Notes: generated by a model not told the origin, from the letters alone. A stretch of 9,120 nt of DNA from a virus (IMGVR_UViG_2778261447_000001:1-9120); one strand, 5' to 3'; shown: positions 2,665 to 9,120, counted from the first letter of the stretch. Translations and numbers: made by a program.

Positions 2665-3365
2665 TGGCGGATTCGAATCTCAATGTGCCGGTAATCATCC
2701 AAGCTACGCGGCTCGATACATCAATCCTTCCACGCAATATATTCAGCCAGTCTTACCTGCTGTATGTCATAAATCAGGGTGCTGATGTTGGCGCAATTGC
2801 CGGGAAGGCAAATCAGGCTGGTCAGGGCGCTTACGATGCTCAGGTAAAAAACGATGAACAGGACGTCGAACTGGCAGATCACGACGCAAGAATCACCGCA
2901 AACACAAAAGCGATAAATCTCCTTGAGGTCAGGTTAACAACCGCCGAAGGGAAGATAGTCGTACTGCGTAGCGATGTTGATTACTTGCTGGATGAGGTTA
3001 TCGATATTCAGGCGCATCTGGTCACTGTTGACCAAAGACTGGATGGCGTAGAAAGCGATGTATCTGACATTAAGAGTGATTACGTATCGAAAACCGTAAC
3101 CGAATCGCAGTCTCTTGCGTCACCGCTGGATGTAAAAACATCATATTCAGTTGATGGAATTCAGGTCGTTGGAGCAAGGCAGACCGGATGGACTGCAGCC
3201 ACAGGTACGCCACTTCTTGGCTCATTCAACGCAAACCAGTCATACACTGTCGGCACTACGTACACGCAATCCGAAGTCGCAGCTCTCGCTACAGGTTTGC
3301 AGCAGGCGCGGCAGCGTATTCTGGCGCTTGAAACGGCACTTAGATTACATGGGCTGATTGACTGA
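2664..3365 (+). CDS. P22 gp26-like tail needle (plug) protein, 233 aa
   Basis: N-terminus ([25 protein letters not shown]...[35 protein letters not shown]) and C-terminus (...[15 protein letters not shown]...[21 protein letters not shown]) match recalled P22 gp26. Identical length of 233 aa. Start overlaps the gp10-like stop. Confidence 0.9.
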
Positions 3366-3820
3366 TGATTACATTCAAACCAACGCGAAACATCGACCTG
3401 ATCGAAGCAGTAGGAAATCACCCTGACATTATCGCCGGGAGCAACAACGGTGATGGATACGACTACAAACCTGATTGCCGTTACTTTGAGGTGAACGTGC
3501 ACGGGCAGTTCGGCGGCATTGTTTACTATCAGGAGATTCAGCCGCTGACATTCGATTGCCACGCAATGTACCTGCCAGAGATTCGCGGCTTCAGCAAGGA
3601 AATCGGGCTGGCGTTCTGGCGATACATTCTGACTAACACCACCGTTCAGTGCGTCACATCGTTCGCCGCACGCAAATTCCGCCACGGGCAGATTTACTGC
3701 GCAATGATTGGCCTTAAGCGTGTCGGAACCATCAAGAAATACTTTAAAGGCGTTGATGACGTGACTTTTTACAGCGCCACACGCGAAGAACTAATCGACT
3801 TCCTGAATCACGGGAGATAG
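3365..3820 (+). CDS. Hypothetical virion protein at the P22 gene-14 position (151 aa)
   Basis: ORF translationally coupled to the needle gene (TGATG overlap) and lying between the needle and gp7-like genes. I do not confidently recognise the sequence. Confidence 0.55.
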   Translation: MITFKPTRNIDLIEAVGNHPDIIAGSNNGDGYDYKPDCRYFEVNVHGQFGGIVYYQEIQPLTFDCHAMYLPEIRGFSKEIGLAFWRYILTNTTVQCVTSFAARKFRHGQIYCAMIGLKRVGTIKKYFKGVDDVTFYSATREELIDFLNHGR

Positions 3821-3822
3821 CC

Positions 3823-4515
3823 ATGTTATATGCATTTAAGCTGGGCAGAAAACTGCGCGGCGAGGAACCTTATTGCCCTGAAAAAGGCGGGAAAGGTGGC
3901 AGTTCTGATAAAAGCGCAAAGTATGCAGCAGAAGCTCAGAAGTATGCCGCAGACCTGCAAAATCAGCAGTGGCAGACGATCATGAAAAACCTTGCTCCGT
4001 TCACGCCTCTTGCGGAGCAGTATGTTAACCAGCTTCAGAACCTTTCCAGTTTAGAAGGTCAGGGGCAGGCACTTAATCAGTATTACAACTCTCAGCAGTA
4101 TAAAGACCTTGCAGGTCAGGCTCGTTACCAGAGTCTTGCTGCTGCGGAGGCTACGGGAGGACTTGGTTCGACAGCCACAAGCAATCAACTGGCTACGATC
4201 GCGCCGACTCTCGGTCAGTCTTGGTTGTCAAACCAGATGAGCAATTACAACAATCTGGCAAACGTTGGGCTTGGTGCTCTGCAAGGTCAGGCAAACGCCG
4301 GGCAGACGTACGCCAACAACATGAGCAGCATTGCACAGCAAAGCGCAGCTCTTGCCGCTGCTAATGCCAATAAACCATCAAGTCTTCAGACTGCAATTAG
4401 CGGTGGCACGTCTGGTGCGATTGCCGGTGCAGGTCTTGCCAGCCTTTTGGGAACATCAACGCCTTGGGGCGCTGGCATTGGTGCTGGTATCGGATTGCTT
4501 GGCTCGTTGTTTTAA
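3823..4515 (+). CDS. P22 gp7-like ejection (E) protein, 230 aa
   Basis: Position and size match P22 gp7 (229 aa). Q/N/A-rich body with a Gly/Ala-rich hydrophobic C-terminal tail (GAIAGAGLASLLG...GAGIGAGIGLLGSLF). Shine-Dalgarno GGGAGA before the ATG. Confidence 0.75.
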   Translation: MLYAFKLGRKLRGEEPYCPEKGGKGGSSDKSAKYAAEAQKYAADLQNQQWQTIMKNLAPFTPLAEQYVNQLQNLSSLEGQGQALNQYYNSQQYKDLAGQARYQSLAAAEATGGLGSTATSNQLATIAPTLGQSWLSNQMSNYNNLANVGLGALQGQANAGQTYANNMSSIAQQSAALAAANANKPSSLQTAISGGTSGAIAGAGLASLLGTSTPWGAGIGAGIGLLGSLF

Positions 4516-4524
4516 GGGGTAATC

Positions 4525-5856
4525 ATGGCTACTTGGCAAGGAACAAACGGCGGATTGTTGGCTGGTATCGGCGGCGTCAACTCAAACGCTCCGAGCGTAA
4601 ATGACATCGGCAATACGCTTCAGCTTATCAGGCAGAACAATGATATTGAGCGTTCAGGCGCTAACAATGTTGGGCTGACTGCTTTGCAAGGCCTTTCAGG
4701 TATTGCGGGGGTGTTTCAGCAGGAAAAGCAGGCTCAGCGGCAGAAAGAATTTCAGCAGGCATACGCTAATGCTTATGCGTCTGGTGATCGCGGTGCTTTG
4801 CGTCAGTTAGCTACTCAATATCCAGACCAGATTGAATCCGTTCGTAAAGGCATGGGATTCATTGATGAAGAGCAGCGCAATTCTATCGGCACCTTAGCGG
4901 CTGGCGCACGCCTTGCGTCATCGTCTCCTGATGCGATGGCTAACTGGCTGCAATCTAACGCCGGTGAGTTAGCTCGTGTTGGCGTTAATCCTCAGGATGT
5001 CGCTCAGATGTACCAACAGAACCCGCAGCAGTTCGGCGAATTTGTCGATCACCTGGGGATGGCCAGTCTCGGACCCGAAAAATACTTTGACCTTCAGGAT
5101 AAAATGCAGGGTCGCCAGGTGACCATGCGCGGTCAGGATCTGGATTCGCAAACCGCCGCCCGGAATCAGGCAATCACAATGCGTGGGCAAGATATCCAGG
5201 CAAATTTAGGTCAGCAGCGCATTAATCTGGACGCAGAAACAAACCGCATTAACAACGAAAATAAGCACCTTGACCGGATGCTATCAGCAGAAACTAACGA
5301 CCTGAAGCGCCAGGAAATACAGAGCCGCATAGCAGCCAACAACCAGAAGTTGCAGCAGAAGCAGCAAGAGCTAAATGATGGCTACAAAGACGGCATCAAC
5401 ACTCTCACAACCAGCATGTTCACTCTGAACGATATCGTTAATTCTCCTGCACTTAAGAGCATTACAGGCTTACGTGGAGCAATCCCCAACGTTCCAGGCT
5501 CACAAGCTGCAGACACTCAGGCGCGACTTGATACCTTTAAATCCCAAGCATACCTGACAGCGGTTCAGGCCATGCGAGGCATGGGCGCACTTTCTGATGC
5601 CGAGGGCAAAAAGCTCGACCAGGCTGTTGGTTCGCTGCAGAACTCACAGAGCGAGGAGTCCTTTCGTCGCAACGCTGGCGTCATCCTGAACACGCTCAAC
5701 CAGAAGCGTAATGAGGCGGTTGGTAAGTACGTTCAGCAAAACGGTATCAAGCGAGTGGAAGCGCCTCAGGCTTCTATAGATTACCTGAAGCAGCACCCCG
5801 AGCTGTCAATCGACTTCATTAATCGCTACGGATATCTTCCATCTTTGGGGCAGTAA
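4525..5856 (+). CDS. P22 gp20-like ejection protein, 443 aa
   Basis: Second of three consecutive ejection-protein genes (P22 order 7-20-16). Shine-Dalgarno AAGGGG before the ATG. Q/N-rich with internal short repeats. Confidence 0.7.
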   Translation: MATWQGTNGGLLAGIGGVNSNAPSVNDIGNTLQLIRQNNDIERSGANNVGLTALQGLSGIAGVFQQEKQAQRQKEFQQAYANAYASGDRGALRQLATQYPDQIESVRKGMGFIDEEQRNSIGTLAAGARLASSSPDAMANWLQSNAGELARVGVNPQDVAQMYQQNPQQFGEFVDHLGMASLGPEKYFDLQDKMQGRQVTMRGQDLDSQTAARNQAITMRGQDIQANLGQQRINLDAETNRINNENKHLDRMLSAETNDLKRQEIQSRIAANNQKLQQKQQELNDGYKDGINTLTTSMFTLNDIVNSPALKSITGLRGAIPNVPGSQAADTQARLDTFKSQAYLTAVQAMRGMGALSDAEGKKLDQAVGSLQNSQSEESFRRNAGVILNTLNQKRNEAVGKYVQQNGIKRVEAPQASIDYLKQHPELSIDFINRYGYLPSLGQ

Positions 5857-8250
5857 ATGGCTAATTACCGTGATTTGTTAGAGCAGGCTGGCGCACGTTA
5901 CGGTGTGCCAGAAGGGTTGATGACTGCACTGGGTGCCAAGGAGTCTTCTTACAACCCTGCCGCAGTAAGCTCCGCCGGGGCTGTAGGATTGACTCAGGTC
6001 ATGCCTGGGACATGGCGTGATATGGGTTATACCGATGAGCAAATGCAAAACCCCGAATATCAGGCTGACGCTGGCGCGCGCTATCTGGCAAAGATGTACC
6101 AGCAGTTTGGTAACTGGCGTGACGCTCTTCAGGCTTATCACGACGGTCCCGGCAACGTTATGAAGGCAAAGCGTGGTGAATATACGCCAGGACCTGAAGG
6201 CCGCGGTTACGTTGATGATCGCTTTGCTCAATGGGCGGGTGACCCGGTGACAGACTCAACAGTCGAACAGCGCGCCACCTCTGCAAAGGTACATCCTCAG
6301 CAAGACCCTAACAACCCGTTTGCACAACTGGAAGCACAGTCATCCGAACAAGTATCGGCATCAGGCGTGCAGTCAGACCCAAATAATCCATTTGCTCAGA
6401 TTGAGCAGCAGGCAGCCAGTCAGCAGCCACCTCAACCCGTAAGTTCTGTCGCACCGAAACCTGTTCAGCAGCAAGGCGGAATAATGTCTGACCTTGGTAA
6501 TGGACTTGCTGAAACCGGGCGCGGCTTACTACAGGCAGGAATCAACGTAGCGAACATACCTTCTGAACTCACTGATGCTGTAACAAGCGCGGCGGCTTGG
6601 GCTGGCGGTAAACTCGGTATTGGCGATGGTACATATCAACCAGCACCACGAGTAACAACGCAGGGATTAGAGCAGGACTTTGGCCTTAAGCAAGGCGCGC
6701 TGACTCCACAAACGACAGAGGGAAGGGTATTTGCTGAAGCATTGCCTTACCTCACTCCCGCTGGCATTGAGAGAGCGGCAACACAGGCACCAACACTTGC
6801 TGGTCGAATTGCTCAGGGGGCAACTCGCCTTCTAGCAGAAAACGCAGTTGGATCACTTGCTGCAAATAGTGCGAAAGATGATGCGGAAGCACTCGCCACC
6901 GATTTAGGCGTTGGTGTACTTGCTGGCGGTGCTATTAACGCTGCCGGACGTGGATTAGGTGCTGCTTATCGTGGCGTTCGTGGTGCTATCGCGCCAGAAG
7001 CGCAGCAGGCTATCAGATTTGCAGAGCGTGAAGGAGTTCCTCTGCACACCACAGACCTGTTACAACCCACTTCCCGCGTCGGAAAAATGGCGCAGACTAC
7101 AGCAGAAAATATCCCTCTGGCTGGCACAAGCGGAATGAGAGCAACGCAACAGGAAGCGAGAAGCCAGTTGGTGCAGAGATTTGCCGATAAATTCGGTGAG
7201 TATGATCCAGCGGTTGTTATTGACAGCCTTAAAGCGAAAACATCAGGAATTCGTCGTGCCGCCGGTAATCGACTGGAGCAGGTACAGAATGCAATGGCAG
7301 GAATCAACATTCAACCTGCCAGAGCAATTCAGCAGATAGATACTGAGATATCTAACCTGCAGAAGCTTGGTAAGGTCGCTGATAACGAGACGATTTCAAA
7401 ACTTCAATCCTATCGTGATGAGCTTATTCGCAATGCTGGTCCTGATGGTCCGGTAAATCTGGATTTGAAGCAATTAAGCGATCTACGCAGCCAGTTCAGA
7501 ATGGACGTGAAGGGTGAGCGACCAGTGTTACCAAACCGCTCCGATGCCGCCATTCAGCGCGTTTACAAGGCGATGACAGACGATATCAATGGTGCCATTG
7601 GTCAGAATCTTGGCAATGATACTCTCCGTAAATATCAGCAGGCCAATGCCGTCTACGCTGACGAAGCAGCGAAACTAAAGAATACCAGGCTGAAGAATGT
7701 TCTCATGAAAGGCGACCTGACACCGGAAGTTGTCAACAACATGCTATTCAGCAAGAACAAATCGGAAATTAAGACGCTGTATAACTCAGTTGGTCGTGTT
7801 GGCAGGGCGCAAATGCGCAATGGCATCATTGGGAAGGCGATGGAGAAATCTGGCGGATCCCCTGACCAGTTCCTTCGACAGCTTAACATCCTGCAAAACC
7901 AGACTGGCATCACATTTAAGGGGCAGGACGCTGCTTATCTGAAAGGATTGAAAAACTACCTGCAATCCACGCAGCAGGCTGCAAAAGCGGCAGTAACAAC
8001 ACCAACAGGGCAGCAAACCATCCCGTTCATTATCGGATATGGGACAGCAATGAACCCTGCGACAACTGGCGCAGCAGTAAGCTACGGACTTCTTACTCGC
8101 GCCTATGAGAGTGAGCCATTCAGAAATGCAATGCTCCGAATGGCAAACACCCCACGCGGATCAACAGCGTTTGAGAAAGCCATGCAGCAGGCGCAAAAGG
8201 CCATTAACGCTCTGACGCAGGGGGCTAAGTCTGATGCGTTGTCAGAATAG
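5857..8250 (+). CDS. gp16-like ejection protein with an N-terminal lytic transglycosylase (SLT/GH23) domain, 797 aa
   Basis: ATG abuts the gp20-like stop (TAAATG). The N-terminal ~120 aa carry SLT motifs: catalytic Glu in AKESSYNP, then GLTQVMPGTW and AYHDGPGN. The remaining ~600 aa match the size and position of P22 gp16 (609 aa). Confidence 0.85.
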   Translation: MANYRDLLEQAGARYGVPEGLMTALGAKESSYNPAAVSSAGAVGLTQVMPGTWRDMGYTDEQMQNPEYQADAGARYLAKMYQQFGNWRDALQAYHDGPGNVMKAKRGEYTPGPEGRGYVDDRFAQWAGDPVTDSTVEQRATSAKVHPQQDPNNPFAQLEAQSSEQVSASGVQSDPNNPFAQIEQQAASQQPPQPVSSVAPKPVQQQGGIMSDLGNGLAETGRGLLQAGINVANIPSELTDAVTSAAAWAGGKLGIGDGTYQPAPRVTTQGLEQDFGLKQGALTPQTTEGRVFAEALPYLTPAGIERAATQAPTLAGRIAQGATRLLAENAVGSLAANSAKDDAEALATDLGVGVLAGGAINAAGRGLGAAYRGVRGAIAPEAQQAIRFAEREGVPLHTTDLLQPTSRVGKMAQTTAENIPLAGTSGMRATQQEARSQLVQRFADKFGEYDPAVVIDSLKAKTSGIRRAAGNRLEQVQNAMAGINIQPARAIQQIDTEISNLQKLGKVADNETISKLQSYRDELIRNAGPDGPVNLDLKQLSDLRSQFRMDVKGERPVLPNRSDAAIQRVYKAMTDDINGAIGQNLGNDTLRKYQQANAVYADEAAKLKNTRLKNVLMKGDLTPEVVNNMLFSKNKSEIKTLYNSVGRVGRAQMRNGIIGKAMEKSGGSPDQFLRQLNILQNQTGITFKGQDAAYLKGLKNYLQSTQQAAKAAVTTPTGQQTIPFIIGYGTAMNPATTGAAVSYGLLTRAYESEPFRNAMLRMANTPRGSTAFEKAMQQAQKAINALTQGAKSDALSE
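6304..6411 (+). repeat. Tandem duplication of a short peptide motif (DPNNPFAQ[L/I]E) in the linker of the gp16-like protein, period 72 nt
   Basis: gaccctaacaacccgtttgcacaactggaa (6304-) and gacccaaataatccatttgctcagattgag (6376-) encode QDPNNPFAQLE and SDPNNPFAQIE. The two copies differ mostly at synonymous positions. Confidence 0.6.
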
Positions 8251-8319: not shown

Positions 8320-8339
8320 AAATCCTCCGTAATGGATGG

Positions 8340-8600
8340 TTATCTGCTGTCTTTTTTATATAGCTTCTTGAGCGTATCAAAGACAATTTTCTTAACCATA
8401 TCAGATTGTTGTTCTGCCATACGCTCTGCATCGTCAATGTAAACTGATGCAGAGCTTTGTTTAGCCAACGATTCTTCAATCGCTGCAATTATCTCTGAGT
8501 TCAGCGACCTGTTATTCATCTTCGCGCGCTGTTTAATTTTCGCGTGAAGTTCATGCGGAAGTCTCAAGTGAAACTGCGCCTCGTCGTATTTGCTGTACAT
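8340..8600 (-). CDS. mnt: Mnt-like ribbon-helix-helix (Arc/MetJ family) repressor, 86 aa
   Basis: C-terminal half DAERMAEQQSDMVKKIVFDTLKKLYKK closely matches recalled P22 Mnt (DAERLADEQSELVKKMVFDTLKDLYKK). The N-terminal strand FHLRLPHELHAKIKQRAKMNNRSLNSEI matches the RHH pattern (P22: FNFRMPMEVREKLKFRAEANGRSMNSEL). Start chosen at the internal ATG (8600), which has GAGG 8 nt upstream; the upstream ATG at 8633 has no Shine-Dalgarno. Confidence 0.8.
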   Translation of the reverse strand: MYSKYDEAQFHLRLPHELHAKIKQRAKMNNRSLNSEIIAAIEESLAKQSSASVYIDDAERMAEQQSDMVKKIVFDTLKKLYKKDSR

Positions 8601-8721
8601 CCTTGATGCCTCACCAGTTGGGTGGAATGGCATCGTAACTTACTGGATAAATACTCAATAGTACCATTTCGGTATGCAATCACATCATGGTTGCATCATA
8701 TCATTCGTCTGGAGCAATGAA
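8601..8721. promoter_or_regulatory. Divergent intergenic control region between mnt (-) and tailspike (+); expected site of the mnt promoter and operator
   Basis: 121-bp AT-rich spacer between divergent starts. Contains an inverted repeat ATGCAA-N11-TTGCAT (8674-8696) and a short CACC-N5-GGTG dyad (about 8611-8623). The promoter hexamers are not confidently assignable by eye. Confidence 0.35.
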
Positions 8722-9045
8722 ATGTCAGATATCACCGCAAATGTTGTGGTAAGCATGCCTTCGCAACTCTTCACTATGGCGCGTTCTTTTAAAGCGGTTG
8801 CCAATGGCAAAATTTATATCGGAAAAATTGACACTGACCCGGTAAATCCTGAAAACCAGATTCAGGTTTATATAGAGAACGAAGACGGCTCTCACGTTCC
8901 TGTTTCGCAACCAATCATCATTAATGCTGCTGGATATCCGGTATATAACGGACAGATTGCCAAGTTCGTAACTGTGCAAGGCCACTCTATGGCTGTTTAT
9001 GATGCGTACGGTTCGCAGCAGTTCTATTTCCCGAATGTACTTAAG
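8722..9045 (+). pseudogene. Tailspike gene (P22 gp9-like), N-terminal head-binding domain only; truncated after codon 108 by an IS2 insertion
   Basis: Translation [108 protein letters not shown] is near-identical to recalled P22 tailspike residues 1-108. Shine-Dalgarno GGAG lies 7 nt before the ATG at 8722. After ...FPNVLK the sequence switches to IS2 terminal sequence. Confidence 0.85.
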
Positions 9046-9120
9046 TGGATTTGCCCCTATATTTCCAGACATCTGTTATCACTTAACCCATTACAAGCCC
9101 GCTGCCGCAGATATTCCCGT
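9046..9120 (-). mobile_element. IS2 insertion sequence terminus (partial; the element continues past the window end), transposase on the - strand
   Basis: 9046-9120 is the reverse complement of the recalled IS2 end ...CGGGAATATCTGCGGCAGCGGGCTTGTAATGGGTTAAGTGATAACAGATGTCTGGAAATATAGGGGCAAATCCA. On the - strand it encodes the transposase OrfB C-terminus ...[20 protein letters not shown] with its stop at 9057-9059. Confidence 0.8.

Follow-up and report, generated by a model that had tools for sequence, protein, structure and literature searches.

The element that separates the gene 16 homologue from the tailspike gene in the 9,120-nt stretch of DNA analyzed in the present study (hereafter, the window), which represents the right-hand end of a late operon in a P22-like (Lederbergvirus) prophage, is almost certainly an ant moron that consists of mnt only. 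This minimal, cargo-free element would comprise mnt, a leftward promoter of its own, and an operator of its own, and autoregulation, one of the roles proposed in an initial annotation of this DNA, is the most plausible local role of the Mnt protein. We assign a probability of approximately 0.55 to the mechanism as a whole, in which the leftward promoter, autoregulation at the operator, and expression of the tailspike by read-through are all predicted. The arrangement is already known from phages L, ST64T, Sf101, and IME10 and is common in E. coli.

The features of the locus are listed in Table 1. Homologues of P22 genes 4, 10, 26, 14, 7, and 20 were assigned by ORF order and sizes, not by a search. 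The SLT domain of the gene 16 homologue was identified at residues 7-110 (Pfam, 2.8e-25), and its RefSeq neighbors carry the names "lytic transglycosylase domain-containing protein" or "P22-gp16 family." P22 gp16 itself, a protein of 609 aa, is not known to have this domain. The gene 16 position in relatives is occupied by the SLT form or by the plain P22_gp16 form. The extent of the moron was obtained from a pairwise alignment to the gene 13-14 junction of Sf6, with which the megablast pieces to Sf6 agree. Both flanks are homologous between the two and each has a leader stem-loop, but Sf6 is without the ~370 bp that hold mnt, its promoter, and its operator, such that the insert relative to Sf6 corresponds to mnt plus the control region and hairpin.

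The N terminus of the tailspike matched the Pfam family Head_binding (2.3e-65), and the 5' end of the gene showed 83-96% nucleotide identity with those of HK620, Sf6, CUS-3, epsilon34, and IME10. The gene is interrupted after codon 108 by an IS2 end, within which the window ends, the sequence being visible only up to position 9120. Since the tailspike gene is cut by IS2, the prophage copy is probably defective, and a functional tailspike is likely not made. No ORF lies between the 3' end of mnt and the convergent gene 16 homologue. A small ORF on the plus strand (8622-8720) was rejected as a gene because it had no family match and was missing from other spacer types.

Table 1. Positions of the features at the mnt-tailspike junction, counted from the first nucleotide of the window.
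Feature	Position	Strand	Details
Gene 16 homologue, last late gene before the moron	5857-8250	+	797 aa, N-terminal lytic transglycosylase (SLT) domain
Mnt-only ant moron, extent	8336-8705	.	DNA missing from Sf6; edges approximate (~10 bp)
mnt	8340-8600	-	86 aa; stop 8340-8342, start ATG 8598-8600
Inverted repeat	8605-8634	.	GATGCC 8605-8610 / GGCATC 8629-8634; encloses CACC-N5-GGTG 8612-8624
Proposed Pmnt	8632-8658	-	-35 TTGAGT (8658-8653), 15-bp spacer, -10 TACGAT (8637-8632)
Candidate Mnt operator AGTACCATTTCGGTATG	8660-8676	.	Core TACC-N5-GGTA 8662-8674, center 8668
Stem-loop in the tailspike leader	8674-8696	+	9-bp stem with one G-U, 5-nt loop
Tailspike ribosome-binding site and first 108 codons (head-binding domain)	8711-9045	+	GGAG 8711-8714, ATG 8722; gene truncated
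IS2 end	9046-9120	.	75 nt, 100% identical to IS2-annotated records

The mnt reading frame was listed as 8340-8633 on the minus strand; the start given in Table 1, which the initial annotation had also used, is the likelier one, with GGTGAGG located 8 nt upstream, and an alternative ATG at 8633 was rejected because it has no ribosome-binding site. The product had been described as Mnt-like in the initial annotation, and this was borne out by profile searches, in which residues 7-49 matched the RHH DNA-binding domain (Pfam Arc, 6.8e-15; Mnt family PF03869 + PF11423) and residues 57-82 matched the C-terminal coiled-coil tetramerization domain (Pfam Repressor_Mnt, 9e-15). The solved structure of Mnt (PDB 1mnt) was matched over residues 6-78 (5e-19), and PDB 1qey matched the tetramerization domain (4.4e-8). 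The 86-aa protein is, by these matches, a true Mnt homologue, for which a tetrameric state is predicted.

It shares 49% identity with P22 Mnt, and its DNA-contacting beta-strand reads QFHLRL, herein designated type A, while that of P22 Mnt reads HFNFRM. The type-A N-terminal domain, ...DEAQFHLRL(P/T/S)HELHAKIKQRAKMNNRS..., is almost invariant, although the C-terminal halves vary widely, and this near-invariance spans proteins from Escherichia, Salmonella, Citrobacter, Serratia, and Rahnella. The identity of an RHH antitoxin was rejected because the corresponding Pfam matches were weaker (HicB, 1.2e-6; FitA-like, 1.7e-6) and no toxin ORF was adjacent. The label "partition protein ATPase," which Sf101 gp14 (locus L001, 3007-3300) inherited from PHROG 795, was also rejected: the protein is 86 aa long and has no significant match to an ATPase domain, the sole match of this type listed for Mnt being AAA_22 (E = 0.069, 13.9 bits against a cutoff of 27). 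The same label is found on the RefSeq records of epsilon34, ST64T, ST104, and SPN9CC, and is a mis-annotation that has spread.

Villafane et al. (2008, PMC2629481) and the phage L genome paper (2020, bioRxiv 10.1101/2020.10.05.325894) have already described mnt-only ant morons in ST64T, ST104, and L. As in the window, the mnt of phages L, ST64T, ST104, and SE1/ST160 stands alone and is divergent from the tailspike gene, with the gene 16 homologue on its other side, and arc, ant, and sar are all missing. Other P22-like prophages were searched for the same adjacency, as the initial annotation had recommended, and it proved to be widespread: the gene 16-mnt-tailspike junction, at about 95-97% identity, was found in phages IME10 and Sf101, in 441 IMG/VR stretches, and, out of 5426 complete E. 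coli genomes, in 142, in which the gene is annotated as "Arc family DNA-binding protein." Sf101 gp14 and its unannotated equivalent in IME10 share the 121-bp spacer with the window at ~95% nucleotide and 98-99% protein identity; unlike the IS2-interrupted gene of the window, their tailspike genes are intact. An mnt gene directly divergent from the tailspike gene was also present in L (135-bp spacer), ST160, vB_EcoP-720R6, VSe13, JEP4, and the Proteus phage Brookers, and the genera with the mnt-only module are Escherichia, Shigella, Salmonella, Citrobacter, Serratia, Rahnella, and Proteus.

The distance of 121 bp between mnt and the divergent tailspike gene (8601-8721) was as initially described, and so was the absence of arc and ant. 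P22 Arc, Ant, and SieA gave no tblastn match in the window, and the complete genome of Sf101 contains no arc/ant pair. Arc and Ant were likewise not found by tblastn in the best 80 of the 441 IMG/VR loci, which are at least 95% identical and, thus, biased toward close relatives, and in most of which the spacer of exactly 121 bp is kept; across 92 loci searched with Arc, Ant, and SieA, none of these adjoined a type-A mnt. The Kapi1 RNA-seq paper deals with a phage that has the full mnt-arc-ant locus and holds no data on type-A mnt. Longer distances between mnt and the tailspike gene in some loci were attributed to insertions of homing-endonuclease genes, not to arc/ant. Such an HNH/AP2 gene (162-179 aa) was inserted on the opposite strand after approximately codon 5 of the tailspike gene, between mnt and the tailspike, in loci L012, L019, L044, L069, L073, L079, L084, and L098-L100; the insertion leaves a short duplicate of the tailspike start beside mnt, and the site has been used by at least three unrelated endonuclease sequences.

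Regarding the control region, the sequences to the right of the mnt start were compared among P22, epsilon34, L, 720R6, ST160, VSe13, JEP4, and the window. P22 immI resembles the window in the Mnt fold and tetramerization domain, in the leftward orientation of mnt between genes 16 and 9, and in the presence of an operator at a similar distance immediately past the -35 of Pmnt. In contrast to the window, it has arc, ant, sar, the Arc operator, and a strong Pant; the window lacks both arc/ant and a strong Pant, as found in the complete immI of P22 and epsilon34. P22 and the window also differ in the sequence of the operator and in the residues that contact DNA, and the 60 bp beside mnt cannot be aligned except for CTCAATAG.

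Promoters were scanned with a simple weight matrix, the hexamer frequencies of which did not come from a curated file, and which recovered the annotated Pant (15.5) and Pmnt (13.1) of P22. In each of the five mnt-only loci scanned, namely, the window, L (TTGTGG-17-TATGAT), 720R6 (TTGAGG-17-TAAGAT), and VSe13 and JEP4 (both TTGTTG-17-TACGAT), the best leftward promoter fell on the Pmnt-homologous position. Both hexamers of the proposed window promoter were invariant in 55 haplotypes, and transcription is predicted to start near 8625, while its score was reached by 18% of shuffled sequences and is not significant by itself. Promoters with a 15-bp spacer are usually weak, and the spacing in the 121-bp type suggests a weak promoter.

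The site at 8660-8676 is the best candidate for the operator, to which Mnt is predicted to bind. Its center is 68 bp from the mnt ATG, and that of the annotated P22 operator, AGGTCCACgGTGGACCT, is 66 bp from the mnt ATG, just past the -35 of Pmnt. The core TACC-N5-GGTA was found in every QFHLRL locus at 67-74 bp from the ATG, including Serratia and Rahnella loci with diverged surroundings, and was invariant in the type-A loci of five genera, with the exception of one Citrobacter copy with TACT. The central five bases varied (ATTTC, GTTTC, ATTTA, and TTAAC), and the perfect arms were limited to 4 bp in the window, while the Rahnella-type site was perfect (GTACC-TTAAC-GGTAC). The motif occurred once in the 38.7-kb genome of Sf101 against 0.2 expected, and essentially once per type-A locus. 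A second copy of this motif or of the dyad at 8674-8696 was not found in the whole Sf101 genome; therefore, a second, hidden cis target of Mnt is unlikely. A perfect palindrome that matches the operator core, CTACC-ATATT-GGTAG, was observed inside the P22_gp16-type gene of two distant loci (L098, 5341; L101, 7210) and may be due to chance.

The operator candidates differ with the beta-strand of the cognate Mnt. HFNFRM is paired with AGGTCCACgGTGGACCT, which was present not only in P22 but also in two loci with the P22 strand; QFNLRL with AGACCACnGTGGTCT, which forms in L, ST160, and 720R6 the perfect dyad A(A)GACCACnGTGGTCT(T) at 71-74 bp from the mnt ATG; QFNFRM, in a Phlomobacter locus, with ATATCACgGTGATAT; and QFHLRL with GTACC-N5-GGTAC. 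The L/ST64T/ST104 type shares with the window a homologous control region, comprising the GATGCC...GGCATC repeat, a leftward promoter, and a dyad 70-74 bp from the ATG, but differs in the QFNLRL strand, the operator AAGACCACcGTGGTCTT, the 135-bp spacer, and a leader hairpin of the P22 type. It also has one extra ORF between gene 16 and mnt, where the window has none.

Two other dyads in the spacer, ATGCAA-N11-TTGCAT and CACC-N5-GGTG, were initially listed as candidates and were considered not to match P22 Omnt. The mismatch was confirmed against the Omnt sequence AGGTCCACGGTGGACCT, which is itself absent from the window, and both dyads are real; however, CACC-N5-GGTG is located at 8612-8624, one base from the position first given, has arms of 4 bp, and, similar to the other dyad, is not the best operator. 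It is conserved in Escherichia and Salmonella, but changed in Serratia-type loci, and lies downstream of the inferred start of mnt transcription; it may be a second site, but was not adopted as an operator. The surrounding inverted repeat overlaps the proposed -10 as well as the ribosome-binding site of mnt. Together with this inner dyad, it is conserved in type-A and type-B mnt-only loci and was not found in P22 or epsilon34. The few changes observed within the repeat were wobble-compatible on the plus strand only.

The dyad at 8674-8696, ATGCAATCA-N5-TGGTTGCAT, has 9-nt arms that are 89% complementary and was found only in the 121-bp spacer type. It was rejected as an Mnt operator because it is absent from the VSe13, JEP4, 135-bp spacer, Serratia, and Rahnella loci, which encode the same Mnt DNA-binding strand. 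Located 26-48 nt upstream of the tailspike ATG, it behaves like an RNA stem and appears to be a leader hairpin of the tailspike unit rather than a part of Mnt control. The nine stem pairs were 97.9% paired across 21 distinct 121-bp spacers (4 of 189 cells unpaired), with one two-sided compensatory change from G-C to U-A (locus L087), and most one-sided changes (U-G, U-A, C-G, and G-U) pair in RNA of the plus strand, but give A-C mismatches on the other strand. Since 10 of 500 and 25 of 500 shuffles reached the observed values, this conservation is only suggestive. The fold of 8655-8740 was no more stable than that of shuffled sequences (z = -0.6), and the hairpin is accordingly proposed on the basis of comparison, not energy.

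An unrelated stem, CCGUAGC/GCUGCGG, is found equally far from the tailspike start in P22-type leaders, and RNAalifold gave six pairs for it, three of them with compensatory changes; the leader of Sf6, which has no moron, carries the stem GGACAGG/CUUGUCC ~25-45 nt upstream of the tailspike ATG. Across P22-like phages, stem-loops were thus observed ~25-48 nt upstream of the tailspike start, at 8674-8696 in the window, 4669-4685 in P22 (L004), and about 474-493 in Sf6 (L109), with the position and the plus-strand pairing (G-U pairs included) kept and the sequence varying between lineages.

In the mechanism that we favor, the mnt gene of the prophage would be transcribed leftward from 8658-8632, and the Mnt tetramer would bind TACC-N5-GGTA at 8662-8674, which abuts the -35 just as Omnt adjoins Pmnt in the P22 geometry. 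Mnt may thereby set its own expression and, in relatives, also that of cargo genes in the same operon, and its binding would prevent rightward transcription of the divergent region. Late-operon transcription that reads through mnt in the antisense direction would express the tailspike; in P22, it is established that the tailspike is reached by late-operon read-through (PMC2629481). In the cargo-free form, this mechanism leaves unexplained the benefit that keeps mnt under selection.

In more distant type-A loci, cargo genes directly follow mnt in the same direction and encode a Rap1a-like protein, a ClpP-like protein (SieA being located further along), a 106-aa product in Rahnella, or, in the very common 88-aa variant, a 161-aa ORF. 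A lipoprotein gene follows mnt in a Proteus phage, and orf59a follows it in P22; the mnt gene of the window is the empty form without cargo. L104 and L105, two metagenomic contigs that are independent of each other, both carry two RHH repressor systems within a single ant moron (3203-5617): a complete but different mnt2-arc-ant set (Bro-N/P22_AR_C) is located just upstream, and a type-A mnt with its own TACC-N5-GGTA still adjoins the tailspike gene. This coexistence argues for the type-A cassette being a separate module rather than an immI that has been stripped of its target. A broader reading, which we advance only tentatively, is that the QFHLRL-type Mnt represents an independent cassette with its own operator class, which coexists with mnt-arc-ant, regulates a cargo slot, and is kept through a further role when this slot is empty; it also holds that all P22-like tailspike leaders carry an RNA hairpin of conserved structure and variable sequence that affects tailspike expression.

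It appears unlikely that the role of Mnt is instead to control the tailspike, either by repressing a weak tailspike promoter (e.g., CTTACT-17-TACCAT, the -10 of which is inside the operator) or by roadblocking late read-through. The operator occupies the positions 46-62 bp upstream of where the tailspike gene begins, many phages retain the adjacency, and Villafane et al. (PMC2629481) suggested a possible influence of Mnt and Arc on late read-through into gene 9. However, the promoter reading into the tailspike that the initial annotation envisaged Mnt to gate could not be substantiated: a rightward sigma-70 promoter was not detectable in the window, in which the best score was 5.7, a value reached by 65% of shuffles, the rightward scores of all mnt-only loci were 5.8 or less against 15.5 for P22 Pant, and a consensus scan of the plus strand of the window found none. 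The conserved TACCnT fits the -10 pattern TAnnnT, but TACC would be conserved anyway as an operator arm, and type-B loci have no -10 at that place. Furthermore, the insertion of homing-endonuclease genes that separate mnt from the functional tailspike start is tolerated.

A role in trans as secondary immunity is also rather improbable. According to this explanation, the lone Mnt represses the ant promoter of incoming related phages with the same operator type, which spares the prophage from induction by antirepressor. The resident Mnt acts in this manner on superinfecting P22, as shown by established genetics cited in PMC2629481; mnt is under purifying selection, as detailed below; and the specificities of Mnt and its operator have diversified into types, as immunity determinants do. 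On the other hand, no type-A Mnt or operator preceded arc/ant in ~100 loci and eight phage records, the operator motif was found only at mnt itself, and the ant genes beside a type-A mnt in L104 and L105 have their own, different repressors. In addition, phage L, which carries a lone mnt, was reported to be without a functional immI (10.1101/2020.10.05.325894).

The lone mnt gene is, as judged from its sequence variation, under purifying selection and is not a relic. The reading frame was of full length (261 nt) in 83 of the 88 related copies, pN/pS was 0.15 over 56 distinct sequences and 0.11 in the DNA-binding half, and variable sites clustered at third codon positions. Nucleotide diversity in the 121-bp spacer (pi = 0.020) was ~3-fold lower than that at the 4-fold sites of mnt (0.065, from only 19 sites). 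The loss of a canonical target by the repressor, as stated initially, would imply that a deletion took place recently and is not upheld, given that the module is old, widespread, and selected, and that its control region differs from that of P22. A decaying remnant left by the deletion of arc-ant and devoid of a present function, a possibility raised by the authors of the phage L study (10.1101/2020.10.05.325894) and one to which the absence of cargo, the 15-bp promoter spacer, and the IS2-broken tailspike in the window, as well as a single Citrobacter copy with a stop and a mutated operator arm, would be suited, is very improbable in view of these values and of an operator core that is invariant across genera. 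In that Citrobacter sp. copy (L088, 5001-5252), the stop is at codon 5 and the operator arm reads TACT where TACC is expected; in no other case seen do the gene and its site seem to decay jointly.

The discovery value of the arrangement is low because it has been published and is frequent in databases, and the correction of the "partition protein ATPase" label, which is carried by many records, is of modest value. The lone mnt is also of modest interest in that purifying selection acts on it even without cargo or ant. The leader hairpin could bear on the level of the last late protein, and the four types of Mnt beta-strand, each with its own operator, may provide a recognition code, open to testing, for a repressor that is a classic model.
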